A stretch of DNA of 64,000 nt from Candidatus Omnitrophota bacterium (lineage in GTDB: Bacteria > Omnitrophota > Omnitrophia > Omnitrophales > Aquincolibacteriaceae): contig JAKLFP010000006.1 of the NCBI GenBank assembly GCA_022711115.1, positions 86,214 through 150,213 on the forward strand. The letters run 5' to 3'. Shown in pieces: positions 6,943 through 49,900 of the stretch. The notes under the pieces are model-generated. The model had not been told where the DNA came from and ran no database searches. It saw only the letters and a program-made list of their open reading frames with translations. Every line of letters starts with the position of its first letter. Position 1 is the stretch's first letter. Position numbers and translations under genes: made by a program.

Positions 6943-7442
6943 CTTCTTTTTTGTAACTCCAATGAGGCTTGGTATTTAGAGCATGTAAAAGTTAACACAT
7001 GTTTTTAAGTCTTACAATGGACTTATAAAATTTATTTATAAAATATAACAAGCTTTGGATAAAAAAAACTATCTTAAAATAGCATTATTATTCATAAAAT
7101 CAGCAACCTGCTACCTGGAGTTATTTATGAAATCCTTGTGATTTTTAACAATATTTTTGAGACTTTACGATGATTTTTGTCATGCTATAATGCCTCTTCT
7201 TGAAATTGTAAAGGGGGACCTGAGCCATGCTGCAGATCGGCGAAACCGTTCCTGATTTTGAAATACCATTCATTTAAATGGGAACGAAGTCTTTCCGGCA
7301 GGCTGGCAACCCGATAAAAGGATATTTAGACTTAACCAAGCTTTGGTTAAAAAAATATAAAACCCAGCGATTAATTTCAGGCCATTGCGGTAGAAAACTT
7401 TTTACGGCTGTGTTTTTATCGCTTACAAAATGAGAGGTATTT
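6943..7442. promoter_or_regulatory. AT-rich 500-bp region between the start of giant ORF 2 (minus) and sod (plus). Presumed divergent promoters.
   Basis: Very AT-rich. Contains a TATAAT-like tgctataat at ~7185. Near-palindromic 'ccaagctttgg(a/t)taaaaaaa' occurs twice, at ~7048 and ~7336. Confidence 0.35.
7227..7345 (+). pseudogene. Degraded peroxiredoxin (Bcp/AhpC-like) N-terminal remnant upstream of sod.
   Basis: A good Shine-Dalgarno (aagggggac) precedes an ATG at 7227. The 16-codon ORF MLQIGETVPDFEIPFI* matches the canonical Prx N-terminus M..(V/I)G..(A/V)PDF.LP. After the stop, another frame continues with NGNEVF, resembling Prx D.NG.EVSL, which implies a frameshift and truncation. Confidence 0.3.
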
Positions 7443-31900: not shown

Positions 31901-34900
31901 GACGTTTCAAAACTAATCTCATCAATCCTCATCTTCACCTGGAACATAAGCCGATACACAGCATCCCGGACCTCAGAAGGCGTACGTGCAAACACCTCCA
32001 TAGACTTGGATTCTGCTAATGTTTCCGAAACCTTTTTTGGGCTAATTTTCTCTGAAACAGTCATCACGTCGATCTTCTGCCCGATTTGAAACTCGGGTTT
32101 AGGCGCGACAGTCGGTTGAAGTGTGAGCGTGATCTCGCCTTTGTTGTTCTCGGCAGTCAATAAGAACCATCCGTATATTTCTTGGTGGGATGGCACATTC
32201 GCGAAAAAGTCGTTGCCCGTATCGTTCCAAAATGCTGAGGATTGAATCCGGCGACCTGCGCTTTGATAAATAACTTCAATGGCGTGGTCCCGCGCGATAT
32301 TCCACCGATCACCGATTTGGCGCAATGCGTCGGAAATCCGGTCAAATGTCAGCGGTTCAGAGGTCCACGTGTCTTTAGACGGAGCATAAGAAACGCTTAC
32401 AATGCGGTTCGCGTTATAACCGGTTGAACCGGCTTTCTCTTGGATATAAAGCGTCCCGCCTATCAATGCCTCGAATTTTCCTTCGTAAACAGTTCCATCC
32501 TGCATGGAAAGCTTCAACATCGTCCCCAAAGCGACATTTCCCGCTTGAGCATCCGTTTTAAATTGCGCGAACGGGACTTTGGCAAGCAACGTTTCCGCTA
32601 TGTTTTTGGCCATCCCTTCCGGCTTTGGTTGCTCTTCACCGCGCACTTCCGAGCGTTTGGAATCCACATAGGTTAGTGAGGGAGAGAGACGATCATCGGC
32701 AAAATGCAGCCAAAAAATTTCGCCTTTCTGAATAAGAATATCTCGCCATTCCATCGGACGGCTATAAGCATAACGCTGGCCTTTGCTAGAAACCTCTGCA
32801 CCGACCAGGGCCTTATCACTGAGCGAACGAAGACGGATAAGAGATTCCATCAGATCCGCGAGAGACGATTTCTTTAACGCCTTGACTTTTATGAGTGCTT
32901 CCGAGCCATGGATTATCTGGACAGCCTGCTGCGAAGCGCTAAGCCCGGAACCCGGACTCACTAGGCTTCTCAATTCCGAGCGGGACTCGGCGATGAGGAA
33001 GGAATCGCCGGCTCCGGCAATTTCGAAAGTTTTCAAATCCGGATTCAGAAAAGAGCGCCGGAACGCTTCGCCCAAGGACATCCGTCCCGCACTATCCAAT
33101 TCAATAAAAATGGCCCTGCGATGAATTTGATCCATATAGTCTCTTGCCGCAACCGGATCTTGAGGCGTTGTTTGCTCAACCATTTGCTGCCATGCTGTCG
33201 AAGGATAAACCCGCAAGGCTTTGCCTGCCTTTTCCGATACAGCGATAAGTTGAGTCTCCTCTCCTAACATGGTTCGGAAAGGTGCGGGAAGTTGGATCCT
33301 ATTTTTATCATCCACCTTGAAGGTATAAGAGCTGGTGAAGATCACCGGCGCCCGCACTTCAGAGCGGGAAATCACGGGTAAGAGACCTTTATATTTAAGA
33401 TCAGGTCTTTGTATGCCAAGAGAAAAATTTGAACTGCCATCCGCGTACCGGATCACCCATGGTTTTTCGGTTTTGCTTTGGGCTTCCAGCAGTTCAGAAA
33501 GCGATGGTAACTTCACCGGTTGGCCGTTCTTGAACCATTCCAAAACTCGGTTTTGCTGCGACGTATAGCCCAATTTTTTTGCTAGGGTCTCGCGAAGCGC
33601 TTGGGAATCCATGAACTTCATGGGCCAAGGAGCTTTAAGATCAGGCGGGAACCTTGGATTGGTGCGAATCCCGTATACTTGTTTAATTTCACCATCCTGG
33701 GTGATAAAAATTGCCTGGAGAGGGAAACGGCCGTCAAAGCTGCTTCGTAATTGGTCACCGTCAAAAAACCTGGTTTTAAACCGGCCAAAGTGAACGGAAA
33801 TGTTTTTGGCGCCGGTCCGATAAACGAGTTCATGGTCAGGTCCAAGATAAAATCCTTCGAATTCCGGGCTTCTCGGGTCCTGCGTTCCGTTGAACGCGAC
33901 AACTCCCTGCTCAACCGGCTGCTGATACTTCTGCGCCAAATCGAACAGGATTTGTTCTCCTTCAAAATAAGTGACATACGGATCAAGCGCCTGCGCGAGG
34001 TCCCTGTCCCCGAAAAGATTGCCGACGATTTTGACCGTAACGGGTTGCACTGCCTTTGCCCCTTCCGCTTGAGCAAGGCTGATGATCTCGATGCTGTTCG
34101 GATCCTTCGCAGGTTTAAAATCCACGCCCTCGATCAAATAAAGTTTGTCGCGCCAGGCCTGAAGCTGGCTAATCAATTCATTGATAGTGATCTGCGGTCC
34201 GGTTAATGGTTTCAACGTAATCCTCGATTGCCCGATCTGTATCCACCTTGTCGGGCTCGTCACGGACCGGCTGTAAAGAACTTGGGTTTCCGGTAACGCA
34301 ATGGCCGGTTCGGGTTTCTGTTCAACGGGTTCTGTTTTCTTGACTTCTTCTACAGGGGCTTGCGCTGTCTGAACCGGGGTCTTGGGAGAAGCAAATCCCT
34401 GCCGTTGCTGAGCCGCTTTCTCACGGAGTTCTTGCTCTTTCTGAGCTACTTTTGACACCCTGACATCCCACTGCCCGCTACGGCGGGCGTCGTCTTTATT
34501 CATTCGCACTTCAGAGCGGGAGGTAAGCTCGACAATTTGGACGGTAAGTCTTTTCATTTTCTCTTCAGCGGAAGTATTGAGTAATCGATAGGCCGTAAAC
34601 GGTCCCGCAAGCATTTCCGTCACTTCTTGAAAGCCATATTGCCTGACCTTCGGAATAGCGTAATTGAATTCCACAACCGTGACAGTTTGAGAAGCGCTAT
34701 CGACTTTAGCGATCACTCTTTTCCATGAAATGGAGCCGAGATTGGAATTGTCGATGCGCCAATCCTTAGAGATCAACACGCTATTTTCTAAAGTATCGAA
34801 GTCCCCTGCCGAGGTTTGAGAAGTGATCCTGCCGCTTGCCGTATTATTTTCAAGGAGCTTCAGAAGATCGCCATACGGGATGAATCTAACTTCCCCTTCC

Positions 34901-37900
34901 GCTTGCGAAATAACAAGATAAGATTTGTATGCGTCGTGTTCTTGTTCTGCGACAAAAAAGCTAAGATCGCCTGTGGTTTCATCTTTTTGGAAGTCAAGGA
35001 TCCGTTTCCCGGCAAGGAATGTTTCGATTTCTTTTTGAAGTTCCGCGGCAGAACGCCCATTCGCGGCCTCAAATTCAACCTGCCGTTCACCTTGCTTCAC
35101 GATTAATTTTTGTCCGGATTGTTCAATGATAATTGCCGGCGGCGCTGAGTAAGGCCCACCCCACGGAATGCGTCCTTTTCGGGACAGGCTGCGTACTTCC
35201 GAGCGCAACGCAGGTTTTTCCTGCGGTAATTTTCCCAAAACCGCTCTGGCCGCATCATGAACAAGGCTTTTTCCTTTTTCATCAAGACGATTTCCTGAAA
35301 CAAGCTGCTGGACAACATTGGTCACACGGGCATTTACAAAATCGATGAGATCCTGGACCGTCAAACCTGAAAATTCATAATAGGCCGGTTTGCTTTTGGC
35401 CTGCAAGGCGGCTTCATCCGTTTTTGTGATTTCGATGCCGAATCTTTCTTCGAGAGACTGCATCAGACTCATTTCATCCAGGGAATCCATGCCGAGATCT
35501 TCTACTAACCGATCCGTCAGACGAATTTCTTCCTCGATCGCGGGAGGTAAAACCTCTTTTAAAATATCGATGACCTCTTGATCAATATTTTCACTCACCG
35601 TTCCCCGCATTTCCGAGCGACTGGCCTTTCTTCTTTCATTGATGGCGTGCTGAAAGGCATTCGAAAGTATTTTGTAGGGATTTTGCGAATAAAAATAATT
35701 TTGCCACAACCAATGCGCCAGACCTGAAATCCCGATAAAAATCATGCTAAACGCAACCACGCGGGGGATCTGTTCCTCCGCCGGCAAGAAGAATGTTGCC
35801 GTCCCGATAAGAGGAAATATAATCCCCACCAGGACCTTCATAAAAGCACTGCTCCGTCGGAATTGGAGTTCAGCAAGAAAAGAGGTGGGGTTACCGTTTT
35901 CCGCTTTTTTGTAATTGTCGGCATATCGGTTTTTCATTTTTTCCCACAATTGTTCTAAGCGGTCTAAGGTTATCCGGTTTTTACTATTTGATCGGAGATA
36001 TGCTCTGACCGATTCATCAAGAGAGCGCAATTCAGACCTTGCTTCCGTAAAGAGAACAGGATTGATTAAGTCATGGCTTAAATTAAGGGCATCATATTTC
36101 AAAGCTTTTTTTTGCTGTAAAAGTTGAATGCTTTTTGAAGGAATAGTTCGAAACTCAATACGATCAAACTCTGGGACTGTTTCTGTCCTGACGTTTTTGG
36201 TCGGTTTGATGCCCATGGAAGATATCCAGCCTTCAAAGGTTGTTTCCCCTGCTTCTTCCTGAAAGAAGTAAAAACGAAGTTTGAACGGCCCTTGAACAAT
36301 GTCCTCGGGTCCCAATTCGCGGGACCGGATGGTCCCGGCAGCCCCCGCTAACCATGAAAACCACACAAGATGGGAAAATTGTGTCCTTGGCAAATGTTCG
36401 TGGTGGGAATTATAAAGTTTATCGGGAAGTGCGAGATAGTGCTGTACCGCCTTACGGTTCTTAAACAACGTGATCATAAGACCTAAGGATCCTTGCTCAT
36501 CACCTTCAAAGTCATGGGCATCCAACCGAAGCTCCCGCTCCCATCCGATGCCTCCATTTCTCATATTCCAAACAAGCGGTTGGTGGACCAGATCCGACAG
36601 TTTGAATAAAGGTCCCTGAACAGCCCGTACTTCGGAACGAGTTTCCAGCTTCCTTGGCATAAAGAAATTTCCCGCATCGTCCTTCGAATCCCCCATAGAA
36701 AGCTGCTCGATGCCTTTAAAAACTTCGGCAAAAAACTTTTTTGCTTCGGCCTGTCTTATAGATTTTGAAGCGATAGAAAATTCCACTGTGATATCACGGC
36801 CATAGCTATTCAGCATCGCCTGCGTGTGATAGTTCAAGCCTAAAAGGGTCATCTCGTCCCACGACAAAAGATTAAATCTCTGTCCGTCGCTGCGAATAAT
36901 GGCTGCTTGAAAACTCTTGTCTTGAACAAGATATTTTCTTTCGAGAAGATGTTTGGTTCTGGCGGTAGGCGCCGTGTGAAGCCCGAGAGCGTTTCCGATG
37001 CTGTATTTCTTTGCCGCGATCCAGCGATCTCCTATTTTTGTCAGCTTAAAATCAGTTTTTCTTAATTCGGAGCGCTGATCGTTCATGTAATTCGGCTTGC
37101 GGGTCACCGGAAAAGCAGGCTCGGCGGTTTTTCGGGCATATGCAAGCAGGTATTTCTGCATTTTTTCGTATTTTGTACCGACGTTGATCGGGCCTTCGAT
37201 CCCACGGATGGGCTCCGTCAGTGTGAATCCCGCGGCCCGAAGAAGTGTTTCGAAATAACTCGGCGTGACAGTAAAGACCCAGCCATTGAGAAGTCGATCG
37301 CCGCTTAATTTTTGATTTTTAGGCTTGAAGATATTTCCCCCCGGGGCCCATCGGACAAAAAGAGGCGCGTCTTTTTCGAGAAGGTCCCTGAGCGAAAGTA
37401 ATGCGTTTAGCTGTTCTTCGGGCGAAAAATAAAGGAGCACATCGCTGATAAAAATCCCTCCGAAAGTTTTCCCGTTGAAATCAGCCGTTCGGAAATCGGC
37501 GGTCATGAACCTGTCTTTAGACATGTCCCCGAAAGAGGGATCTTCGAGAGCGGCTTTGATAAGCGACGGCGAGATGTCCGTTCCCCAAAGGTCGGTAAAT
37601 CCCTGTTCCTTAAATTTCTTGAGCGCCCTTCCGATGCCCATACCCACATCAAGAATGCTTTTATCCTTGCCGGCCATCAACGCCAGGAACTGATCGATCG
37701 TTTCTTGATGCGGAGAAACGTTCCAATCGCGGAGCTTATGGCGTTCAAAATCAAGGGAGAATTCATCATCCGTCCAGTACCGGACATTGCTGATCGCCGG
37801 GTCGGGGGGTGATTTTCTGAAGGTTTCTACCGCCGCCTGGAATTCCGGAGAAGTTTCCATCAGCGTTGCCAAAACCCGGGCAAATTCCGGATGATGTCTT

Positions 37901-40900
37901 ATCTCGGAACGTTTTGGGGAAGCTGGGACTGCGGAAGATACAGGCAGCAACGGTATGAGCGGCTCATAATAATGTGGCGCCGGATTGTAGTAAGAAGAAA
38001 CGTCTTCTGTTTCTTGTGCGCGTAATTCATTGCGCGGTGGAGCAATGTAGATACCGTCAAAAACAAGTTTGCCAACCAGATTGGTCCCGGCGTATTCTCT
38101 TTTTACAATAAAATCTATCTGGGCAATGCCACCATCTAAATACAGTATTGGCACCTCTACTATTTGATTTGCATATACCCTGGGAATGTCTCTCCCATCA
38201 CTTCCATGCAGTTGTATTCTAAACTGGCTGGGCACATTAATTGTTTCAGCGCCAACATGAAGTCTCAGTATAGTATTAGTCGGCCAACTTGCCAGTGATA
38301 CGTAATTAATTTTCGCCCATGCCCCTTCCCAGTTGCCTTGCCTAAAATCAAAATTAATTGTCCATTTACCCCCTGAGATACTTTCAGTCACTCCGCTCCA
38401 AAGAATGCCATGACTGGTAACTAACGGGATCAGGGATATGTTTCCTGAGGCACTAAAAAATTCCTTCTCGAGCTCTGTGGAATTCAAAGGGCGGGTAAAG
38501 GATGCGTCTCCGTTTTTGCCGGGAACATTCGTAAGGACTGCGGAGGATCCCGTAAAATTAGCCGGATAAGTTCGTATGTCATAAGCGTTGTAATTGGTGG
38601 GGCCGGTAATATTCATCGTGACTTGATTTGTCGCAGGTCCTTTTCTGATCGACATCAGTATATTCGTCATCTGTGCCAGCGCGCTTTGCGCCTGAAGTCC
38701 GAGCACGAGCAGGCCGGTTATGACAAGTTTTGAGATCGCGCTCATCCGTACTTCAGAGCGGCCGGCGTTATTGTTGTCGTTCAGTATCTCCAGTAGTTTT
38801 AGAATGTTTGGCTGAAGAATATCTTCTGTTGAAACATACTTCCGAAGAATGGTTTCGACTTGAGCAACCCGTAAGGTCCTTTGAGCCGCTAAATCCCGTA
38901 TATCTCCGTAAAGAACACTTGCAACGCCCCCCAACCCAAAAGCAATAAGGAATGCTACTGCGCCAAATCCGAAAAGACCGATGCTCCCTATTCCTAAAGC
39001 CAACGCGAAAAGCTTATGACGTTTTAATTGGGATTCTGTTTTAAAGGAAAGCTCATTCATCCAAAACGTATATAAAACGGCTATCTGGGCAAAATCAACC
39101 TGCGCCTCCTCACCCTCCATTTGAGCCCATTTGTATATACTTTCCGCGATCTTATTCCATTCTTCTTCTTGATAAATCGTAAGCCGTTGTTTTACCCATT
39201 GAAGATCGACTTTCTCAATTGGTTTACGGGAAGCCGCCATAGATAGAATGTCATCAATAGCGCGCAAGGAATAAGGATGCGAAATTCTTCCTTTTTTGAT
39301 TGATTCGTTTAAAAAATTGATCCCCTTAAAAACTTCGGTTCTTCTTTCATCTATGAGAGGGGAAACTTCACCTGCAGGGAATGCCTCTCCACGCACCTCG
39401 GAACGTTTTTGAGAAACAGGAACTGTGGCAGGCATGAGTGATAGCCGATGACCGCTCCGGTTATAAATCACTCCATTGAGTGTTAGTGTTTGATCGTCAT
39501 TAAAATGGACGCTCTCAAGAGGAGCCTCTAAGGTTGCCCATTGGATTCCTAAATTGGGATAAGGATTGAACATGTCTATCAGATGGATCCCCGCCAAGTA
39601 ATTAGTCATACCTCCGGCGCGGACCCATTCTCCCCAAACTACCACCTTGCCATCCGGCGAAACATCCCAAACATTAGGAACCAATCCGCGATCTTCCGCT
39701 GAATCATGTAACTTAAACGTTCTCCAGGTATGCGAGCGCGGGTTTCGAAGATCAACCATTTGAAGCGTTTGAATGCCAGAGGGTAAACCTGGACCTACTT
39801 GCACCCATGTTCTAAGCTCAAAATCAGGATTGGAAGTAGCCCGGATAAAAGGTGTTGGCGAATATTGAATCAGTGGAAAAACCTGATCTGTTTTGACACG
39901 ATAAAAAGCCTCAGCCCAGTAAGGCGTCATATTCACTACGGTTTGGGTTGCTCCCACAATGCCGGCCTGTGCCGTGAACCAAGTCCCGGAAGCAAGATTG
40001 GTCGAGATCTGAACCCAGTAAGTACGGTTGGTGGAACTTTTAAAACCCATGCCCATGACTGAACCATTTTTTACAAAAGAAATTATTTCGACCAGATTCG
40101 TCATCTGTGCCAGCGCGCTTTGAGCCTGAAGTCCGAGCACAAGAAATCCAAGCAAGGCAATCTTGGAAATCGTCTTGGCGCGCATTTCGGAACGTGTCTT
40201 TGAATGATAAGTTCCGGGCAAATGATAAGTACCGGGTAATAGCTTTATATAAGTTTGCTGCCCCGGAGAAATAAAAGCCAGTTTCTCATCAAGTTTCGCC
40301 GTCACATCCACTATGTTTTCTTGCAAATTCCATGATGAGATAGCCTTAACAGTAAACAAAGGCCCTTCAGATTTCCAGGAGGGCGCACTCATCATCACAA
40401 ATCCCATCGCACTAAACGCTTCTATCGCATCCTTTTCGAATTCAGCCCTGGAATACGAACGGGCCGTCCGCGCCTCGGAACGCCGGATTCCGTTGCGGTC
40501 ATACGTCCTGTTGCCATTCAGAGTGATGGTTCCGTTTTCATTGAAGCGGATTGATTGCAACGGATCCGGAAGATCAAGAAAGATTCTTTGCTTGGTAGCT
40601 GGTTTATAAAAAACAGCACGATTGCCTAAGATTCCATAGACAACAATGACTCCATCCTGGGAAACATCCCATGGGAAAGCTGAAATACGCGCATAGTAAG
40701 CGTCATCAGAAATGATTGTCCATGTTCGATTACGCAAATTCATCATGTCAAAAAAGATATCCCATGATGTTCCCCCTGTCGTCCGCGGATCAATTCGAAA
40801 AGCGAAATCAGGGTTGGATGGGGCTCGGGTCCAACTAACAATAGATCCGGGTGATGAAGGCACAGCATACAAAGAACCGGCTTGTATTTTAAGAAACCCT

Positions 40901-43900
40901 TTCCCGGTAAAAGATCCGAACAACTGAACAGATGTTTGTGGGGTGCTAATGAAACCCGCCCAGGCAAAATTCCATGTGGGATTTGCCGTAAGATTCGTTG
41001 CAGTTAAAACGCGATGTGCGATATTGGTCCCGAAATTCGTTTCGCTGAGAAATCGTAGCCAAAGATTTGTCGGCGAGTAAGCAAACGAAGTGATCACCGG
41101 CGGGTTTATCTGCGGGATTGCGGGATACCCGATAGCACGGAAAAATCTCTGGCTTGGATTTAGAGCCAATCGATTTAAATAGAGGGCGACAGAATCCACA
41201 TAAGATTCTCGGCCGTAACCGCTGCCCATTACGTCAACTGACGTAACCGTATCGCCTTCCGCAAGTCCGAGCTCCTGAACCGTAAAAGTTCGGGTCACCC
41301 ACTGATTCTGCGGAACTAAAACAAAATTGGTATTGCTGGCTGAATTTTCATCATGCCTGTAATTAAAGTACCTGGCTACCTGATAGGCCGAGCCGTTGTT
41401 TCTCAAGCCATTCAATCGGAAATAAACTGGCGCTTCCCTCCCCGAACCGTCTCCAGTAAGTGGGGCTGAAACAATTTTGAAAGTTATATCAAATCGGCTG
41501 AAATTACTCAGCGTAATCGGTGTGTTATATTCCTGCATCATAAAACGGCCTTCACCGTAATCGGGAGGACGTGACAGGCTAACAACTCCTGTGCGTCCAT
41601 CGTAAGAAGAAAAATATCTGGGAACAGTTTCCGCATTAGTCGAATATGGGACCCAACTGTCTGGCAGGCTATTGGTAGATGATCTTTGAAGAAAATCCCC
41701 ATTGACGACCCCATCAACCACATCCGACGGAACCGTAAAGGTATAAGAAGCTGAACCATTCGTTGCCGCAACATTGGCAAAATGAAGAAAATTTGTGGCT
41801 GTCCCGTTGAAAAGCCGCTCAGCGCTTTGGATCTCATAGGTTTTGTTGGTCGCCGGCCCCGTGATGCCCAGCGTGAATTGATTGGTCGCAGGCCCTTTTC
41901 TGATCGACATCAATATGTTCTGCGCCCATCCTCCGACAGAGGACAGCATCAGGCCAATAAGAGCGGTAATCGCTAATTTGCCCCGCACTTCGGAGCGAGG
42001 TGCGACCGGAGCTGCGGAAGAAGTAGGCGGAGATTCTATTAGCGGCTCATAATAATGCGGCGTCGGGTTGTAGTAAGAAGAAACGTCTTCCGTTCCTTGT
42101 GCGCGCAATTCGTTGCGGCGTGGTGCGACATAGATGCCATCAAACACAATCCTCCCGACCATGTTGGTTCCCGCGTCTCTTTTGTCCAGAACAAAAGCAA
42201 GCTCGTTATGCGCAGTTGGCTTAAGCGGCAACTCTATAATCTGTCCCGCTTGTGGATTATGAACCCCTAGAATTTGCGTATTGGGCTTAAATTCGATTTT
42301 GATATAGGTCGGCAGATTTGTCGTACCGGCGCCAAAATGCAGCCTCAAAACCCTGTCGGCGGGAATGTACATTATATCTCCATACTTCAATCTCCCCCAC
42401 GCGCCGACTAAGCTGCTAATGTTAAAATCAAAGTCGATTGTCCATTTTTTGTCCGCTGAAATTCTCTCGACCACACCTGTCCAAATGATGCCATGGTAAT
42501 AAAATAACGGAATCCACGAGACATTCCCTACGGCACTAAAAAATTCGTGGTCTAATTGGCTCGAATTTAAAGGATGGACATAGGAGGCAATTCCACCCGT
42601 TGCGCGAATATTTGTTAAAACCATGGGTGAGCCTACGAAATTAGGGGGATAAGTTCGCAGATCATAAGCATTGTAACTTTTAGGACCAGTAATGTTCATC
42701 GTGACTTGATTTGTCGCAGGTCCTTTTCTGATCGACATCAAGATATTCGTCGCCTGCGCTAGCGCGCTTTGAACTTGAAGCCCGAGCGCAAGCAGTCCGG
42801 CCATGGCGAGTTTCGAAACCACTCCAACCCGCACTTCGAAGCGGGCGAAAGAAGTGATGAGTTGGCGGACTTCCCTGTGAACGGCAGGAGCCCCTAAAAG
42901 AGCTGAGAGGTTAAAGCGCGGAGAATTGACTTTTTTAAGATTGATATTGTCAAAACGCATCGGAAAGATTGGATCACCGTTCTCAAGAGTCGCTTCTCCA
43001 CCGGCCTTCAAGACCAGAAACGCTCCCTGAACAATATCCCAGATTGACGGAGTGGGTTTCATGTAAAAGATCTCAGGGTCTCCTTGGTTATAAACACCGC
43101 TTGAAATGACGCGCCCGATATTGATAAACCCGGATTCTCCTTTATTGAAGATCACTGAACGAGCCGCCGCCTGAACGGCCGCATAGTAAGGCGCCGGAGA
43201 AACTCCGGCTTTATCGGATTGATAAATAGCAACCCTGGCATTTGCAAGGGTACCGGCTGCAGGATCGATCCAAACGGGTTTTCCGTTCAATAAAACTCCG
43301 GGCCGATCCCGGGTGGCGGTCCACATCGAGCTGCCTGTTCCGTCAACATCGTATTCGGGAGCAAAAATAACTGAAAGGACCGGCATGCCGTCTTCAAGCA
43401 GAAGAAGCGCGGTATCATAGCCTTTCTTTTTTGTCTCATAAGCTTTAGTGCCATCAATAGGGTCCACGATCCAGACATGCTTCGCTTTCTTGGCATTCTC
43501 GATCAGCTGCCTGTTCGCTTCCAGATCGGCATCGTCCTGAGAAAAATTTTCTTCACCGAGGACCACAGAATCAGGCACGATCCTGGGAAGTTCAAGATTG
43601 AAGAGATTCTGAATGTCTCGATCAGCCTTTGTTTGCCCTGAGTTGTCACTTTTGACGACGCGATCCAGATCGGAAGACTGAAGGGCTTTTCGCATAATTT
43701 CACCGGCTTGTCTGGCTAGGCTTTCAACTTCACTCAGCGCTTTTTGAACTTCGCCCGGTGTTAAATCCCGCATTTCGGAACGAGATTTTGGTTTTCCGAG
43801 ACGGACGAAAAATTTATGATCCATGTGACCAATGGCGGTTGTCCGTGCTACCGGACGATCTCGATAAGTCTCATCGATCTTGTGCACCCGCAAACCTTTG

Positions 43901-46900
43901 GGAGCTTCCACGCTCAAGTTTGCCGTTTGAAGATCCGCCACTTGCCGCAAAGAAATCTTAACAACACCTTTTCCTGTCTCGATTACAAGCGGTTGGGACA
44001 ACGAAACCTCAAAAATTTGTCCGGCCAAAATCGCCACACCGCCTTTTGTGATCATCGAACCGTCCTTGATTAAAGGAATGGAAACCATCATCCTTTGCTG
44101 TTGTGAAGACAATGTATCGATCTGGACCCGGAAGATCCCGGGGCCGAAAACAAGTTTATGCCCGCGGGAAACGCGCATTGTCTCTGTGGTAAGGATAGTG
44201 GGCTTTTCCGGATTTCGCATTTCCGAACGATGCTTTTTTTCAATTCCTATTTCAGCATACAAAGGCTGCCCTGTGTCCTGGACTTTATGAAGATGAACAA
44301 TAATATCACCGACGGAAATGCTTTCTCCGGCAATCCGTCTGCCCTCTTGGATTACTTGGCCCTCCTTTAAAATTTGCAAAAAAGCGGCAGGCAGACTATC
44401 CCAACCATAACGACCGGGATAAGCTTCAACATCTACGGTCAAAGATAATCCATGGTCTAATTCGATAGTTTGCTGATCTTCAACACGTTTTAAGGATAGT
44501 TCTATTTCATTCGACACTTCAAGTTTTTGTCTTTGGGGACGGTTTTTATAAAGTTCTTTTATTCCTATCACGATCATCCCTAAGATCGCAGCCGGTGCAA
44601 CAATCCTGGCCAGAACAACCAGGGAATTGACCCAATCGATATCCATCCGCAATTCCGAGCGACGAAAATGAGGCGCTTCGTCCATTTCCGGGGCCAAAAG
44701 ATCTTGAGTTTGCTCCACCGCGGCCCTGACAACCGACATTTCATCAAGATAGCGGCGATAAGCGCGCGTGGTCACGGGATCGGCCGGCGATTCCTCGGAC
44801 AAAGATTCGATTTTCTTTTCCAGACCCTGAAGCCAGCTCGCCCATGCCGCAGAAGCCGCGTAGAGCCATCCCAGAGTTCTTACAAGATTTTCGACGTTTT
44901 CCGGTTTTGCGTTTTGACGGTCCGACAGAAGCCGTTCGGCCGCAGGATTGAATTTACGAACCAACGGATCCCGGATCTGGCTAAGCATGCTCGGTTGGTC
45001 CAGCCGGTTATCCTGGAGATGCCTTCCGATCTCTGTCTTGATCCTCACAGGGTCCGTGGAAGGATTCCCGTTGTGCGGCGCGAGCGCAAATAAAGCGTTG
45101 GAAACTTCTCGGAGCGCGGACAAAGCGTCGGCGTGAACCTGTTCCGGTAACAATTTATTTTGATAAATCTCTTCCAGACTCAACAGCCTGTCCATAAGAG
45201 ACGCGGTATTTGAACCGATAAAATCAAGCCCTTCCTCTCCGGCTACCGCCTCTTGTCCTTCTTTTTCAAGAAAACGCTGCGCTTCCCGTCTGCTCTGAAA
45301 GATCAAGGCCGTTTCATTTTCAATCCGCAACTCCGAGTGAGGCGTTTGGGAAGCCGTGTCCCCGCCCGTAAGCGAGAACAACCGCCCGCGCAACACCTCG
45401 AGCCGGCTCGATAAAACCTTCCGGCTACGTTCCAAATTTATCCGTTCTTGTAAAGAGGTTGCTTGGCGAAACTTTACAGCAAAAGATTTTGAGCTGGATT
45501 CCAAATTGGCGATCCTCAAACGAATCTCTTGTTCGTCAACTGGAATCCCCGGATCCGGATCTTCGGCACGCGCCTCCGACCGGGAGATCTTAGTCATGTC
45601 CGGAATATTCCCGAGCAGCTCTCCGACAGCACGGGCTATGCGAACCCGGGAATTGTTGGGATCATCACCGAAATTCCCGGCATTGCTCTGCACTATTCCG
45701 ATCAAGTCAGAGACAACTTCCGCTTGTTTACGGACAGCCTCGGGAAATCCTTCCGTGGAAATCACGTCGAACAGCCCGCCTTTATTTTCCGTAATAGCCA
45801 GGAAAAGTTCCTTCAGCTTTTCACGATCCCCTTTGAAATTTTCCTTGATGCCGGTCATGTCGGGATTAACGCTCCGGACCAAAAGCCTCAAAAGGATCTC
45901 GGCCTTGATTTCAGAAGTCAATGTCCGGTTGCTCATAATATCGTTCAGGACTTTTGCCCGCCGCTCCGCCTCAGAAAAACCCGTCATGGATTCAGGCAAT
46001 GATTCTCCGAGATTCAGAGCCTTGGATTTTTGTTCCTGCGCGTGAAACTCATAGGCCGAGGCCACGATCAGATCCAACCCACGCTGTGCCCGCCAAGCCA
46101 GTTTCCGCGTCGCCAATTCACTGCTGGCACGAAGAACATCCGGATCGCCCTGCCGGCGCGGACCGTAATCCACCACTAATTTGCCGCGCTCTGCCGCGGG
46201 AAGCACTTTCCTGAAACTTTCAACGATCTGATTATTGGAGGTTGGGGTTCCTGTCCCTAAGGTAAAGACTTCGCCTACTTTTTTATTCTCTGTCTTGGCT
46301 TGATAAGACAGTGACAAAGATTTCATAATCGCGTGACCAATGTCCAGAACATGGATATAATCCCGGATATTGGTGCCATCGGGCGTCTGATAATCTTTCC
46401 CAAAGATCTGGAACGGAACCTTTTCTTTTCCGTAAAGGAAATATTTGATGAGCCTCGGGATGAGGTGCGTCTCCGGACCGATATGCCCTTCCCCGACCCA
46501 CTCTCCGATCTCCTCCCAGTAAAACGCTCCTGCCAGATTGAAAAAACGCAGCGCCGCGAAATTAACGCCCTGCGCTTGATAGGCCTGCATCAGGCGTTCC
46601 ATCAGATATTTGGTCTCTCCGTAAGGGTTCATCGGTTTTGCCGGGATCTTTTCATCAAGCAATCCGTATTTATTGAAATTCTTTCCTTCAAAAACACCAG
46701 CGCTCGAGGCGAACGCCAGGGGGATCCCCAGTTCCTTCGCGACTTCTTCCACATCCAGCGTACCAACCACATTATTGTCAAAGTACGTCGCCGGAAAATT
46801 TCCGGAGACCCCAGCGGCAATGTAAGCCGCCAAATGAACAATGCTGTCCGCGTGATGTTCCATCGCGACCTGCTTCAAAAGATCGCGGCTTGCGATATTT

Positions 46901-49900
46901 CCTTCCACCACTGAAACTCTTCCAGGGTAGGCCGCCTGGACCTTCCGCAGATAGGCCTTCCGCTTGGGTGTGAGCATGTTGTCAAAAAGGACGACCCTGG
47001 ACCCGTTGGAAAGCGCTTCATACATGACCCCTGAGGCTACATAACCAAAACCTCCCGTGATCAAGACGGTCTTTCCTTCATGGATTTTAGGATCCACATT
47101 CGGAGCCACCGGGCTTTCGATCATGGATTTCTGCCAATTTAAAAAGTAGAGACGCTCGTCATCTTTAGGAAGGATCTCAAGTTCCCAGTTCTCTTTGATC
47201 AAAATTCCGCCGAGCTCATAAGATTTCTTGGAAGCCAGAAAGGCCGCGATCTTTTCAGGGATCCCTTTTTCCCGAAGTTTGCGTCCCAATTCTTCAGAAG
47301 ACATGTAAAAAGCTTCCTGGGCCGCGATCTCGACAGCGATATGATCGTCTTGCGTCACCTCCACGCCTCCGATGCTGCCAAGACTGGCCTGAAGACGTTT
47401 TTTCCAGTAATGAGACTGCGCCAGATACGAAGTAGCGACCGTTTCCACCACGGCTACGGCATCGGGCTTTTTGATCGGTTCGAAAGTATCTTCGCGCGTC
47501 AGCCCGACCAGAGGAGATTCCGGTCTGCGGGGCCTGTCATCGCTCGCACGTTCTAATTTTTTGACAGTTCTTGTATTCCCCTCGAAATCCACCTGCGGTT
47601 TGGTGTCAAGCCGCCACGGCGTTCGGCTGGACGCTTTGAGACTTTTTCTCCACAACACGCGAAAACTCGGGTCCCCCCACAGCACTGTGTCCTTAATGGC
47701 GTCCGTGGCGTTCCCGTAGCCGATATGGCGCCACTGCCCGTCGGAGGTTTTGATCTGGTTCCCAAGCCGGTCATCGCGATTATTTTTCTTCACAACACCC
47801 AATGCGATATGGGCTCGGTCATCCTGATTGCCGGGATTCCATGTCATTTGCCCGTAGCCGATCAATCGCTCATCCGCGATGGGGTTCAGCTGATTGTCCA
47901 CATTAAGGTACTGGACCACTTCAACGCCGAAGGAATCGAGAAAAGCGTTCACATCCTCCCGGAGAAGAACATCATCAAACGTATCCCCATGACCGGTTCC
48001 CCCTGTCGCGATCTCGCCGTTCTTGTTCAGAAAAGGCATTCCTGTTTTCGCGTCAAAAAGCGGCATCACGCCCTGTTGGGCGATAAAGATCCGGTCTTTC
48101 ATCCCGAACCACTGATTTTCCTCAAAGAACTGTATCGTTTTTTCATGGGTGATATCGCTTGTCATGATGATGACGGGAAAAGACGCGTCGTGACCGTAAT
48201 ATTTTGCTGCGGCCTGGATCTTCTTGATGATCCCGGCATAAAGCGGGAGCTGGCTCAAGGGTGTTCCGGGCAAAAATCCCTTGGGGTCAGGGCTCTTAAA
48301 CTCAGACCCCGAACCTCCGGCCGCCAGGACAAGCGCAAATCTTGATTTCCCGGGCATCGCCGGATCCGCCCGCAAAACTTTTTCCCGGGCCAGACGCTTT
48401 GCGGCGGCATCCTCCGCTGCTCCCGGTTCATGAACAGGAACGGTGAACGTTTCCGGAACTTCCGGCTTCGGCACTCCCGGCATCACAATCGTGTCCCGGA
48501 GTCGCTTGGCCTCTCTCCACAGAATTGTTTTAATCTGTCCGAGTATTTTTTTCTGCTGCTTTTCGCTTAAGGAATCCCACGGCGCCAGCAGGTGCTCCCA
48601 GCCGACTTCCTTGAGGCTTTTCATGGCCCAGGATGGGATTTCCGCGGCAACGCGTACTTCGGAACGTTTCTGCGAACCGCTTGCCGGAACAATCCCGCTA
48701 AGAATATCTTTTTCCCCCGCCGTCAGAACGGCATACGCTTGCGCGTGTTGTTCCGCAATGTCTCGCAAAACTTCTTCAGCGTAGTCTTCATCATCAACTT
48801 CCGGATCAAGACTTTGCATGACTTCTTTAAGAACGCTGGCGAATACTCTCGTGTTGAATTTCCCGTCGGCAAAAGTCTTCGGCAAAAGTTTCCCTTCCGC
48901 CAATTCCTCGGGAGAAAGGTCAAGTTTGGAGATCGCCTTTGCCGCGGCCTCTTCCATAACATGTAGTTTCAGGTCTTTCAGTGTCGGCACATCACGCAGC
49001 GCCCTGAAAATGGCCGGAAAACTGTAGCTGTTGTTCAAGGTGCTTCCCTGCGGGTATCCAAAAGCGCCTGTTGCGATAAAACGGATGTTCGGCATTTTTT
49101 TGAGTTCTGCCGGGTCCGCTTCGGGAGTCGGGTTCGAGCCCATAAAAGCACTGGCCTGGTCCTTCATGCCAGAAAAGATCGATTCCTTGCCCCACAAAAA
49201 CCCAGGCTCGGATAATCCTATAAAAGCATCCGCCCCTTGCAGTCCTTCCGCCAAACGCCCCTGATCGATCAAAGAAAGGACTATTTGGTTAATCTCGGGC
49301 ATAAGATCGCCGTATTTTTCGCTGAGAAATCCCGCGATGTTCTCCGGCAAACGGCCTTGTTTCTGCAGGGCCTCCATCGCGGCCAATCTTTCTGCCGCGG
49401 CATGGGCAACATGCTTTTTATCTCCTCCCTGCTCGACTTCGGCTAAAGCCAGTTCATGGGCCTTCGCAACCGAAAACTCCAGGCTTCCTTTAAATCCCTG
49501 AATGTTCAAAGCCGCCAGGTCATTTTTATGCTCTTCAAAGATTCCTTTTCGGCCCGAATAAAGAGGGCCCTTGGTGTCGTATACGATAATATTGCCACCC
49601 CCTGTTTTATCCATACCGAAACCGAGACGTTTCAGGAGAAGTGCTGTCGCGGTGGCAGAGGCCCCGGCGCCGGCGATCACCACTTTCATTTTAGAAATAT
49701 CACGGTTGGTTTCTTTCGCGGCCCGTAGAAGAGCTCCCGCAAAAACCATCGCGGTCCCGTGCTGATCGTCATGAATGGTCGTGATCCCTGTTTCGTTCAG
49801 TTCTCTTTCCAGCGGAAAACAGACCGGCGACCCGATATCCTCCAGCATCACCACAACCTCAAGTCCTTCCTCCTCGCGAACCTTGGTGACATAAGCCTGG

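Follow-up and report, generated by a model that had tools for sequence, protein, structure and literature searches.

Signal peptides directly past a recurrent pentapeptide in a probable giant polyprotein of Candidatus Omnitrophota

Background

How can a secretion signal work when it lies deep inside a giant open reading frame? The question is raised by four modules (M18, M19, M21 and M23) in the window analysed here, a 64,000-nucleotide stretch of a Candidatus Omnitrophota contig, each of which begins with a predicted Sec signal peptide. The original prediction held that signal peptides need a free N-terminus to function, so that these modules had to be liberated from a precursor. This premise was too absolute, since flavivirus polyproteins and polytopic membrane proteins have internal signal sequences that act during translation. 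We consider it likely that the region is part of a Candidatus Omnitrophota polyprotein gene.

Giant proteins of Omnitrophota were described by West-Roberts et al. (2023, bioRxiv 10.1101/2023.11.21.568195), who speculated on cleavage by C39/S8 domains and stated that the cleavage points were unknown. A "multi-enzyme metabolic cluster" class of such proteins was described in a 2026 preprint (bioRxiv 10.64898/2026.06.07.730766), where the products were taken as single membrane-anchored polypeptides and internal signal-peptide calls were discarded as artefacts, without mention of cleavage, motifs or junctions. Neither paper describes the junction motif, the leader module or the placement of signal peptides next to junctions.

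Results

M18, M19, M21 and M23 were all found, by an ORF check, within one unbroken minus-strand ORF (25993..61080) of 11,695 aa, stop-free over 35 kb and comprising ~38 junction-delimited modules. The modules re-derived from the junctions matched the earlier numbering. An 11,695-aa product of this locus was also present on contigs from three samples (ENA ERZ27257456, JGI 3300009838 and JGI 3300025706), and contig-truncated copies were found in Logan ERR7850085 (6,999 aa) and SRR4244739 (4,215 aa); the full-length ORF call was thus repeated in three independent assemblies that differed in samples and pipelines. Pfam searches detected GDH, HEAT, malic enzyme, UDPGP and epimerase, IMPase, methyltransferase, ACP, MraZ and GT5/phosphorylase-like domains, and indicated that the modules are whole enzymes or complete proteins. 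The MraZ, ACP, IMPase and GDH domains started 4–45 residues past a junction. The Pfam searches of this ORF detected no protease domain of chymotrypsin-like or papain-like type, no RTX repeats and no CPD cysteine-protease domain. A second polyprotein ORF (1..6975, minus strand), of at least 2,325 aa and running off the window start, carried a homologous leader module and RSEIR, RSEVR and RSELR junctions.

The giant ORF contained 36–37 junctions of the form R-(S/A/F)-E-(V/M/L/I/A)-R. RSE[VMILA]R accounted for 33 copies, against 0.07 expected from composition, and the others were RFEVR, RAEVR and two degenerate copies. Across 20 related ORFs, R-S-E-Φ-R occurred 130 times where 0.59 would be expected; the Glu and the two Arg residues hardly varied. 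Conservation was confined to these five residues and did not extend to the upstream nascent-chain segment. The junction codons varied synonymously: the Arg of position 1 was encoded in four ways, the Ser in four and the Arg of position 5 in six. This indicates that it is the peptide, and not the DNA or RNA, in which the signal is read. The residue directly after the junction (+1) was A/G/S/T in 52% of 163 junctions against a background of 27% (P=1e-11) and L/F/Y/W in 4.9% against 18.7% (P=2e-7), and Pro occurred there once in the 163. These biases persisted with the window's own ORFs left out, and the data support reading the +1 preference as a P1'/N-degron signature.

The same architecture was found in dozens of Omnitrophota MAGs. 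The related polyproteins had the leader module and the junctions in common, with mostly different cargo modules; homologous modules kept the same junction boundaries while their order and the module content differed. Examples of such junction-bounded homologs were those of M36 (~56% identity, in L018, L019 and L023) and of the MraZ module M31 (in L018). Signal peptides or TM anchors also came after a junction in P0006, L009 (aa 694), L015 (aa 1206), L016, L017, L020 and L024. In the giant ORF, 5 of ~10 strongly hydrophobic segments started within 10 aa of a junction (P=6e-6); when other genomes were counted too, 12 of 44 began 0–20 aa past a junction, against 2.3 expected (P=2e-6).

As the original prediction proposed, an n-h-c leader began at residue 1 of each of the four modules, directly past the junction, according to a rule-based scan whose rules also gave many false positives elsewhere. 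In all four leaders the n-region contained Lys, the h-region was 11 residues long and the cleavage site read ALA↓Q or GWA↓Q (arrows mark predicted cuts). M18 (41983-42828 with its junction, minus strand like all features below) began after the M17–M18 junction RFEVR (42829..42843) with VGVVSKLAMAGLLALGLQVQSALA↓Q (42757..42828), of the anatomy VGVVSK-LAMAGLLALGL-QVQSALA↓Q. M19 (40468-41982) followed RSEVR (41983..41997) with GKLAITALIGLMLSSVGGWA↓Q (41923..41982; GK-LAITALIGLML-SSVGGWA↓Q), and M21 (39391-40179) followed the M20–M21 junction RSEMR (40180..40194) with AKTISKIALLGFLVLGLQAQSALA↓Q (40108..40179; AKTISK-IALLGFLVLGL-QAQSALA↓Q). M23 (37897-38745) followed the M22–M23 junction RSEVR (38746..38760) with MSAISKLVITGLLVLGLQAQSALA↓Q (38674..38745; MSAISK-LVITGLLVLGL-QAQSALA↓Q). 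Downstream, M19 ended at RSEAR (M19–M20, 40468..40482), M21 at RSEVR (M21–M22, 39391..39405) and M23 at RSEIR (37897..37911), which precedes M24, a SAM methyltransferase. The leaders of M18, M21 and M23 are similar and paralogous, so these observations are not independent. M18, M19 and M21 began without Met, as had been claimed of three modules. No ATG, GTG or TTG preceded the h-region in M19 or M21, M18 had a GTG at codon 3, and no SD-like motif was found upstream of any of the four. Over the whole ORF, 33 of 36 internal modules started without Met; M15, M23 and M30 started with it.

The four modules had been taken as one family, which held for part of them. M18 and M23 were full-length paralogs (58% aa and 65% nt identity, dN/dS 0.26). 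The mature part of M18 (41998..42756) comprised the N-terminal motif TNILMSIRKGPATNQVTMNITGP, a beta-rich body (strands predicted at low confidence) and the C-terminal NELRAQGTEDVSSYYNPTPHYYEPLI followed by a Pro/Ser linker; that of M23 spanned 37912..38673. M19 and M21 were not uniform members. M19 (mature part 40483..41922, with a large insert) shared with M18/M23 only the leader and NILMSIRKGPATNQ, and M21 (mature part 39406..40107, with a small beta domain ending in AFYRV) only the leader and AQMTN. The C-terminal NELRAQ..YYEPLI motif attributed to all four was present in M18 and M23, whereas M19 and M21 carried a different C-terminal domain common to the two. No homologs of the M18/M19/M21/M23 family were found in databases, which counts against our preferred explanation, and none were found for the mature part of M19.

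The DNA of M18 and M23 had been called nearly identical at both ends. In a codon-aligned comparison the overall identity was 65%, with 82% for 38620-38740 and its copy, 81% for 37950-38070 and a longest exact common run of 46 nt. The similarity was not restricted to the signal-peptide codons and peaked at the mature N-terminal motif and the C-terminal motif. The overall dS was ~1.25, and a lower value (0.53) was confined to the N-terminal motif. This indicated that the duplication is old and contradicted the proposal that whole modules were recently duplicated or homogenized by gene conversion; the 46-nt run is at most a short tract that is young or constrained. The dN/dS of 0.26 indicated purifying selection on both modules. 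The proposed cassette-like growth survived in another form, the duplicates taking in linker and junction and the relatives sharing leader module and junctions with mostly different cargo.

Several other modules bore membrane segments. M10 (50395..50976) had the internal TM segment claimed for it, at offset ~34, and M22 (38761..39390) an internal TM hairpin at aa 7356-7392. In M15 (44230..44646) the N-terminus straight after RSELR was a TM anchor, acidic before and basic after, which suggests an N-out/C-in orientation. M20 (40195..40467) was a small soluble module; its homolog in L025, likewise bounded by junctions, was 39% identical across 94 aa.

The leader module M1 (59203..61080), with an N-terminal signal peptide, was the only type of module common to all related polyproteins, each of which begins with one. 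It gave weak PF04187 matches below Pfam thresholds, contained a conserved His...Glu-Gly...Gly-Gly-Phe-His pattern and a helical insert, and had a predicted disordered tail ahead of the first junction; its structural neighbours included RRSP, a MARTX effector. A putative fold like that of Tiki/TraB/ChaN/EreA is thus suggested. This superfamily includes site-specific peptidases (e.g. TIKI and RRSP), and many Tiki/TraB/PrgY/ChaN/GumN/EreA members are extracytoplasmic with an N-terminal signal peptide. M1 is the sole cis-encoded candidate for the junction protease, a role that we regard as possible but rather doubtful. Its own signal peptide predicts export, which makes a trans-acting cytosolic protease at least as likely. 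A predicted extracytoplasmic leader module fits poorly with cutting of junctions that lie beside cytosolic enzymes.

Discussion

The product of the giant ORF is probably cut at the junctions into many separate proteins, in the manner of a viral polyprotein. Translation of one 35-kb ORF would yield a string of ~38 unrelated proteins, each complete in itself and connected to the next through a short linker plus the pentapeptide R-(S/A)-E-(V/M/L/I/A)-R. Every junction would be cut by a site-specific endopeptidase, most likely directly past the second Arg and probably co-translationally, giving every module its own N-terminus. The modules would then reach separate destinations: GDH, malic enzyme, IMPase, ACP, MraZ and others would stay in the cytoplasm as soluble enzymes, and M15 would insert into the membrane via its N-terminal anchor. 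In M18, M19, M21 and M23, which appear to be lineage-specific, locally duplicated orphan beta-rich proteins, the new N-terminus would expose a standard Sec signal peptide, leading to export and to removal of the leader at ALA↓Q or GWA↓Q by signal peptidase I. We infer the cleavage, its position within the motif and the export from several independent but indirect lines, and to that extent the original claim is sustained that the four modules are not genes with a start of their own and have to be released from a precursor. The lines are that conservation of the junction is confined to the protein level, that the modules are complete proteins, that junction-bounded modules are kept between genomes, that the +1 residue carries a P1'/N-degron signature, and that the adjacency of junctions to signal peptides or membrane anchors recurs in other Omnitrophota genomes. 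In addition, M18 lies next to M19 and no TM segment separates the two; by topogenesis rules an uncut chain would be unable to export both with their AXA sites in the periplasm.

The main competitor is one giant uncut, membrane-associated multi-enzyme protein, in which R-S-E-Φ-R is a linker or docking motif and the signal peptides are ordinary transmembrane helices threading the chain. The N-terminal signal peptide and several internal hydrophobic segments of the ORF fit this, as do the indirect nature of the case for cleavage and the published analyses that class long Omnitrophota proteins as single polypeptides with SP+TM or TM only. We nevertheless think it unlikely: the M19 leader after M18 would be expected to span the membrane N-out/C-in, which would put its AXA site on the wrong side, and the acidic N-tail and anchor of M15 must have a short free N-terminus to flip outward. 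A passive linker also leaves the avoidance of bulky residues and Pro at +1 unexplained, leaders occur at residue 1 past a junction far above chance, and complete modules are shuffled between genomes as junction-bounded units. Flavivirus-style separation, with signal peptidase and internal signal or stop-transfer sequences parting the modules co-translationally at uncut junctions, can appeal to the internal signals established in viral polyproteins and polytopic proteins and to AXA sites in 4/4 leaders. But a hydrophobic leader is found at only ~5 of 37 boundaries, the others lying between soluble enzymes with no signal peptidase site; the excess of 130 motif copies over 0.59 is left unexplained; and nothing would keep a downstream cytosolic module, such as the M24 methyltransferase after M23, out of Sec. 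This mode is therefore quite improbable.

A protease-free alternative is that the junction is a recoding signal, acting by a 2A/StopGo-like peptide-bond skip or by stop-less termination-reinitiation. It would suit a motif read at the peptide level and a cis-encoded protease candidate that is itself doubtful, and would remove the compartment problem of the exported leader module. We hold it to be very improbable, since conservation is limited to five residues with no conserved upstream nascent-chain segment, Pro is avoided at +1 (1/163), the opposite of NPG↓P, and we know of no bacterial precedent for 2A/StopGo-like recoding. Internal initiation on a long mRNA, the ORF being an operon whose stop codons were lost, finds some comfort in the Met of M15, M23 and M30 and the GTG of M18, but fails for the 33 of 36 internal modules without initial Met and for M19 and M21, which lack a start codon ahead of the h-region; none of the four leaders is preceded by an SD-like motif, the synonymous junction variation leaves no conserved RNA signal, and an upstream ribosome would read through anyway, giving fused chains. 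It is hardly credible. Still less can be said for an error of assembly or gene calling, or for an array of decaying pseudogenes, despite the metagenomic source and the four modules without database homologs: the 11,695-aa ORF recurs in three independent assemblies, with truncated copies in two further samples, 35 kb are free of stop codons, the M18/M23 dN/dS is 0.26, and dozens of MAGs have the same architecture. We give it practically no weight.

Cleavage at the junctions, as preferred here, would resemble that of viral polyproteins (picornavirus 3C, flavivirus NS2B-NS3, potyvirus NIa), in which many mature proteins, with differing membrane topology, come from one ORF with a short conserved motif at each boundary. 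The flavivirus site (K/R)R↓(G/S/A) likewise has basic residues before the cut and a small P1', and flaviviruses include internal signal sequences. The Omnitrophota case differs in its cellular genome, in a cargo that combines dozens of enzymes of housekeeping type with secreted and membrane proteins, in having no chymotrypsin-like or papain-like protease domain detected in the ORF, and in signal peptides that stand exactly at the predicted neo-N-terminus instead of being internal anchors; R-S-E-Φ-R resembles no viral cleavage site known to us. The gingipain/adhesin polyproteins of Porphyromonas gingivalis (RgpA, Kgp and HagA) are precursors from which cuts after Arg or Lys release several mature domains, and are thus a bacterial parallel for the cleavage proposed here. 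Unlike it, they are secreted whole and processed outside the cell by gingipain itself, and their modules are related adhesin domains, not unrelated enzymes, with no pentapeptide junction.

The published Omnitrophota giant proteins come from the same phylum. They too have ORFs of >10 kAA covered by numerous different Pfam domains, with a signal peptide at the N-terminus and TM segments dispersed along the chain. With the Tiki/TraB/PrgY/ChaN/GumN/EreA superfamily the leader module shares its weak PF04187 matches and the His...Glu-Gly...Gly-Gly-Phe-His pattern, but it has a ~300-residue helical insertion and falls below Pfam thresholds, and we know of no member of that superfamily in polyprotein processing. 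MARTX and related multi-effector autoprocessing toxins differ in their RTX repeats and CPD, neither detected by Pfam here, in cutting at Leu↓(A/S/G) rather than at an Arg-based motif, in having 3–5 modules against ~38, and in carrying toxins, where the Omnitrophota modules resemble ordinary metabolic or housekeeping proteins. They are nonetheless very large bacterial polypeptides, mosaics of unrelated functional modules exchanged between strains in cassette fashion, with inter-module linkers cut site-specifically before a small P1', as we propose for Omnitrophota, and their effector RRSP is among the structural neighbours of the leader module.

The giant ORF is divided by a peptide motif

The giant ORF (25993..61080, minus strand) ran for 11,695 codons without interruption. 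An assembly artefact was ruled out because the full-length ORF was called on contigs from three independently assembled samples (ENA ERZ27257456, JGI 3300009838 and JGI 3300025706), and contig-truncated copies of the gene (6,999 and 4,215 aa) were found in two Logan runs. Its junctions, of the form R-S-E-φ-R, comprised RSEVR (17 copies), RSEMR (seven), RSELR (five), RSEIR and RSEAR (two each), together with RFEVR, RAEVR and two degenerate copies, HSELR and PSEVR; RSE[VMILA]R was observed 33 times, against 0.07 expected from the amino-acid composition of the ORF. Splitting after every motif yielded 37–38 modules (numbered from M1) of 81–1,332 residues each, and the resulting numbers agreed with those of the original prediction. 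Coordinates 37912..42828 corresponded to about residues 6085–7723.

Across the giant ORF, the first Arg of the junction was encoded by CGC, CGT, CGG or AGG, the Ser by TCC, TCG, TCT or TCA, the Glu by GAA or GAG and the last Arg by all six codons, and no conserved nucleotides flanked the junctions. No Rfam family and no tandem repeats were detected. This synonymous variation, without an RNA or DNA signal, indicated that the short boundary motif was selected and conserved at the protein level; judged by its coding, the junction is a peptide-level signal. Explanations at the RNA level were rejected on the same grounds, and an alternative genetic code was rejected because no single codon recurred at the junctions and the flanking genes had normal stops.

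Modules contain whole proteins

Complete Pfam domains sat within single modules of the giant ORF and began a few residues after the junction. Pfam assigned a Glu/Leu/Phe/Val dehydrogenase (GDH) to M6, HEAT repeats to M8, malic enzyme to M11, UDPGP and NAD-epimerase to M12, inositol monophosphatase (IMPase) to M17, a SAM methyltransferase to M24, an acyl-carrier (PP-binding) domain (ACP) to M28, MraZ to M31 (profile position 1 at module residue 4) and a GT5/phosphorylase-like domain to M36. One ORF therefore encoded several complete, unrelated proteins (GDH, malic enzyme, epimerase, IMPase, methyltransferase, ACP and MraZ), and 33 of its 36 internal modules had no initial Met. Ahead of the first junction, M1 was predicted to end in a disordered tail.

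Some modules were fusions with no junction between their parts: M12 (45568–48651, minus strand; 1,028 aa) joined UDPGP, NAD-epimerase and a C-terminal helical region, and M6 (52252–54705, minus strand) joined GDH and an unannotated extension of ~330 aa. Inside M8, RAEVR (51625–51639, minus strand; aa 3148–3152) is probably an additional junction, which would split off a module of 108 aa from the HEAT-repeat part. Junction-bounded homologs of the 108-aa part were present at two leader-family loci of other genomes, L025 and L009.

Membrane segments were also placed near junctions. M15 (44230–44646, minus strand) had a transmembrane (TM) anchor directly after RSELR, and its acidic N-tail and basic C-flank gave an N-out/C-in orientation, for which a short free N-terminus would be needed. 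The internal TM segment described in M10 was present, and internal segments were also found in M22 (38761–39390, minus strand) and M27 (35605–36024, minus strand), both as TM hairpins. Five of the about 10 strongly hydrophobic segments in the giant ORF started at most 10 residues from a junction (P = 6e-6).

Predicted signal-peptide leaders follow four junctions

As originally predicted, tripartite leaders started at residue 1 of M18, M19, M21 and M23 (family A), directly after the junction. Their n-, h- and c-regions (↓, cleavage site) were VGVVSK, LAMAGLLALGL and QVQSALA↓Q in M18; GK, LAITALIGLML and SSVGGWA↓Q in M19; AKTISK, IALLGFLVLGL and QAQSALA↓Q in M21; and MSAISK, LVITGLLVLGL and QAQSALA↓Q in M23. 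All four n-regions contained Lys within residues 2–6 with a net charge of +1 to +2, and all four h-regions were uncharged, 11 residues long and of peak KD 1.97–2.13 (15-residue window). The c-regions ended in A-L-A↓Q (M18, M21 and M23) or G-W-A↓Q (M19), with small residues at −3 and −1 and no Pro at +1. The leaders are thus predicted to have the features of Sec/SPase-I signal peptides; these calls were rule-based, and the same rules without a positional filter were noisy. No lipoprotein (SPase II) or Tat signal was found in the four leaders: their cleavage sites had no nearby Cys, and their n-regions lacked RR.

The leaders were encoded 6,084–7,445 residues into the giant ORF and would be N-terminal only if the junction were cleaved. 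M19 and M21 had no ATG, GTG or TTG ahead of the h-region, and no SD-like sequence lay upstream of any of the four modules. Ordinary internal initiation was therefore ruled out.

M18 and M23 are old paralogs

The proposed paralogy of M18 and M23 was found over their full length (58% amino-acid identity), but their DNA, which had been called nearly identical, was 65% identical overall and 81–82% identical in the two windows cited for it. The similarity extended beyond the signal-peptide codons and was not limited to them. Nei-Gojobori dS was lowest for the N-terminal motif (0.53), followed by the signal peptide (0.93), and stood at 1.26 for the C-terminal part and 1.25 for the whole pair; dN/dS was 0.26. 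A dS of 1.25 contradicted a recent duplication; by these substitution rates the duplication dates far back, and purifying selection acts on both copies. The longest exact DNA run was 46 nt (38612–38657 in M23 and 42695–42740 in M18), encoding MSIRKGPATNQVTMN. With a local dS of 0.53 within otherwise diverged paralogs, it could be a short gene-conversion tract or reflect synonymous constraint, so that at most a short tract was homogenised or constrained. The duplicated units did carry linker and junction with them (37903–37937 versus 39397–39431, 80% identical).

The four modules had been grouped as one family. M19 shared the leader and NILMSIRKGPATNQ, and M21 only the leader and AQMTN, but the remainder was not uniform: M19 and M21 had a common C-terminal domain different from that of M18 and M23, and the motif NELRAQ..YYNP.PHYYEPLI, thought to be family-wide, was confined to M18 and M23. 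The observation was, overall, largely real, with nucleotide identity and family uniformity overstated. In M18 (42103–42117, minus strand; aa 6322) and M23 (38020–38034, minus strand; aa 7683) this C-terminal motif was opened by a junction-like RNELR followed by Ala, which, if cut, would free a Tyr/Pro-rich peptide of ~40 aa, AQ(G/E)TEDVSSYYNPxPHYYEPLI. Asn at position 2 was otherwise absent among about 170 junctions, and the likeness may be coincidence.

No relatives of family A were found with M23 or M19 as query among 5.8 billion clustered proteins, nor in GTDB genomes or JGI metagenomes. An M18 and M23 profile searched exhaustively with HMMER against 1.84 billion representatives gave only two weak matches, to beta-sandwich repeats of secreted proteins, and Pfam gave nothing on M18–M23 even at E≤0.1. 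These searches also failed to return the source ORF, although by exact lookup it is on record for several samples. The indexes therefore probably leave out very long proteins or this contig, and family A is an orphan among searches with that probable omission. An AF2 model of M18 from a 2-sequence alignment had a pLDDT of 44, with beta strands at residues 105–236, and was unusable for fold search.

Junctions recur in related ORFs

A second polyprotein ORF (6975..1, minus strand; at least 2,325 aa) ran off the start of the window. Its junctions were RSEIR, RSEVR and RSELR, and its first module of ~645 aa was homologous to M1 (31% identity over 567 aa, E = 2e-65).

In other genomes, the same junction was found in the closest clade of leader-family loci (42–53% leader identity; L009, L013 and L015–L026) and also at L029, L032, L037 and L057. 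Over 20 ORFs, 130 copies of R-S-E-φ-R were counted where 0.59 were expected. The two Arg and the Glu were nearly invariant, position 2 was mostly Ser, less often Ala and then Pro (S >> A > P), and position 4 was V, M, A, L, I, T or S. In the leader-headed giant ORFs of the more distant MAG OFTM55 (L030 and L034; JAJDCD010000025.1), RSE-φ-R was absent, and a periodic [GA][AS]SLG[KSDE] followed charged linkers every 400–700 aa; [GA][AS]SLG may be a lineage-specific alternative junction.

Junctions also bounded homologous modules at equivalent places. Homologs of M36 (about 56% identity, full length) had junctions at equivalent boundaries at L018, L019 and L023, and M31 MraZ at L018 and M20 at L025 were junction-bounded at equivalent positions; the upstream boundary of an M24-like module at L019 was less clear. 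An M37-like module was the last module in two complete ORFs (L013 and L019). In the giant ORF, M37 lay at 25996–26793 (minus strand) and M36, of 1,332 aa, at 26794–30789 (minus strand). The retention of M36 in three other MAGs and of M37-like last modules suggests a conserved 3′ end of related polyprotein genes. Module order and content otherwise differed between genomes, a cassette pattern.

Junctions as predicted cleavage sites

The residue following 163 junctions was A, G, S or T in 52% (background 27%, P = 1e-11), L, F, Y or W in 4.9% (background 18.7%, P = 2e-7) and Pro in one case, and this pattern persisted in the 124 junctions outside the window. Leu, Phe, Tyr and Trp are N-degron residues under the bacterial N-end rule. 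The bias fits either a P1′ preference or avoidance of N-degrons, and either way points to cleavage after the second Arg.

Junctions next to signal peptides or anchors were also seen in unrelated modules of other genomes. RSEAR, RLKSVLMAGLVAIVSLWTAATAKA and QTVFPGKP followed one another in P0006, from another genome, as did RSELR, INKTFLPALLAGSVALAALFMEAAAKA and QTVFPGKP at L009, in each case a junction and then a signal peptide. At L015, RAEVR was followed by 6 aa and a signal peptide; L024 had FPELR with a signal peptide and RAELR with an anchor, and L016, L017 and L020 had a junction followed by an anchor. A first rule-based scan over all loci gave 83 clusters, was too noisy and was replaced by a stricter test of hydrophobic segments. 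By this test, 12 of 44 strongly hydrophobic segments started 0–20 aa downstream of a junction, where chance would give 2.3 (P = 2e-6), and eight of the 12 were in other genomes.

The giant ORF, with 11,695 aa and more than 10 distinct Pfam families, matched the “multi-enzyme metabolic” class of Omnitrophota giants in its Omnitrophota origin, its length of at least 10 kAA and its many Pfams, none dominating. West-Roberts et al. (bioRxiv 10.1101/2023.11.21.568195), who described Omnitrophota giant genes, speculated on cleavage by C39/S8 peptidase domains and stated that information on cleavage points was absent. A June 2026 preprint (10.64898/2026.06.07.730766) reported giants of the “multi-enzyme metabolic cluster” of up to 147 kAA and treated them as single polypeptides with signal peptide and TM segments; internal signal-peptide calls were deliberately down-weighted as chunking artefacts, and cleavage, motifs and junctions were never mentioned. 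Such a chain would place metabolic enzymes, predicted to be exported, behind a single signal peptide at the N-terminus and as many as 147 TM helices, a topology paradox (10.64898/2026.06.07.730766). In the giant ORF, the signal-peptide modules M18 and M19 were neighbours that no TM segment separated, and we infer that, if the chain stayed uncut, the two could not both be exported with outward-facing AXA sites. The liberation of modules from a precursor, as the original prediction held, is the best-supported reading and was strengthened by the comparative evidence; on these sequence patterns cleavage is predicted, with moderate confidence.

Unlike a MARTX autoprocessing toxin, the giant ORF had no RTX/GD-rich repeats and no CPD cysteine protease domain (Pfam, E≤0.01, whole ORF). 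The 2A/StopGo sequence D(V/I)ExNPG↓P, with Pro at +1, did not match RSE-φ-R, where Pro at +1 occurred in 1/163. Literature searches found no report of the RSEVR motif in a relevant context and no description of bacterial polyproteins of the giant-ORF type, Omnitrophota included; neither the motif at the junctions nor the leader family nor the adjacency of junction and signal peptide appears to have been described so far.

We regard the arrangement as a variant form of the polyprotein strategy, used by a cellular organism and with cleavage predicted. A wider reading, which we consider as likely as not, is that at least the multi-enzyme giants of Omnitrophota are polyprotein precursors, a large and varied part of the proteome being made by virus-like translation and then cutting at a fixed pentapeptide. 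One chain would contain housekeeping enzymes of the cytosol together with membrane proteins and proteins exported by Sec, and every freed module would have a targeting signal of its own at the new N-terminus. Gain, loss and duplication would act on junction-bounded cassettes, and the junction peptide would differ in other lineages, e.g. GASLG. If the junctions are real cut sites, the whole-or-cut question of both Omnitrophota giant-gene studies becomes testable at exact predicted sites, the topology paradox of the 2026 preprint disappears, and bacteria join viruses in large-scale polyprotein expression. There would be consequences for gene calling, proteome-size estimates, stoichiometric co-expression and the claim of the “largest proteins in biology”. 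Splitting giants at junctions makes structure and function prediction feasible module by module, and the motif with its cognate protease would offer a new, orthogonal means of cutting synthetic polyproteins.

The leader module

No classical protease domain was found by Pfam in the giant ORF or its flanks. The leader module, the M1-type first module, had the alpha/beta core of the Tiki/TraB/ChaN/EreA superfamily. Its structural neighbours were 2rad (10.5), HopBA1 (9.5), 2qgm (9.3), EreC (9.2), a TraB family protein (9.2), ChaN (9.1) and the Ras/Rap1-specific endopeptidase RRSP (8.3). A sequence profile search of PDB gave nothing and Foldseek nothing significant (E>0.1), and no sequence match exceeded a curated family threshold; PF04187 (“Tiki superfamily, ChaN”) matched weakly, below its gathering score, in four of 15 leader-family members (best E = 0.0046). 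Conserved residues in two leader-family alignments, A3 and A4, were H84, E112-G113 and TGGFH (~503), candidates for a His/Glu/His active-site constellation; A3 was too diverse for locus finding, and A4 was used instead.

The Tiki/TraB/ChaN/EreA superfamily includes the site-specific peptidases TIKI and RRSP, and for this reason the leader module is a candidate processing enzyme. It has a conserved Sec-type signal peptide of its own (KKLKR, an h-region and AHA/AYA↓Q) and should therefore be exported, which fits poorly with the cutting of junctions beside cytosolic enzymes. That the leader module is the junction protease is therefore doubtful.

The leader module was rare in the protein database (13 matches). 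GTDB species genomes contained 65 loci of the family, almost all in Candidatus Omnitrophota. At most loci it opened an ORF longer than 1,000 aa, and many of these ORFs were still open where the 10-kb flank ended, at about 3,900 aa. A stand-alone leader gene had a giant open frame directly behind it in at least 11 cases; in one of these (L012) the giant ORF had no RSE-φ-R. Stand-alone leaders of ~500–650 aa were found at L012, L048, L051, L055, L058–L061, L067, L069 and L076. The giant frames that often came immediately behind them were on the same strand and had lengths from 1,100 aa to above 3,260 aa, and some of the MAGs were labelled Planctomycetia.
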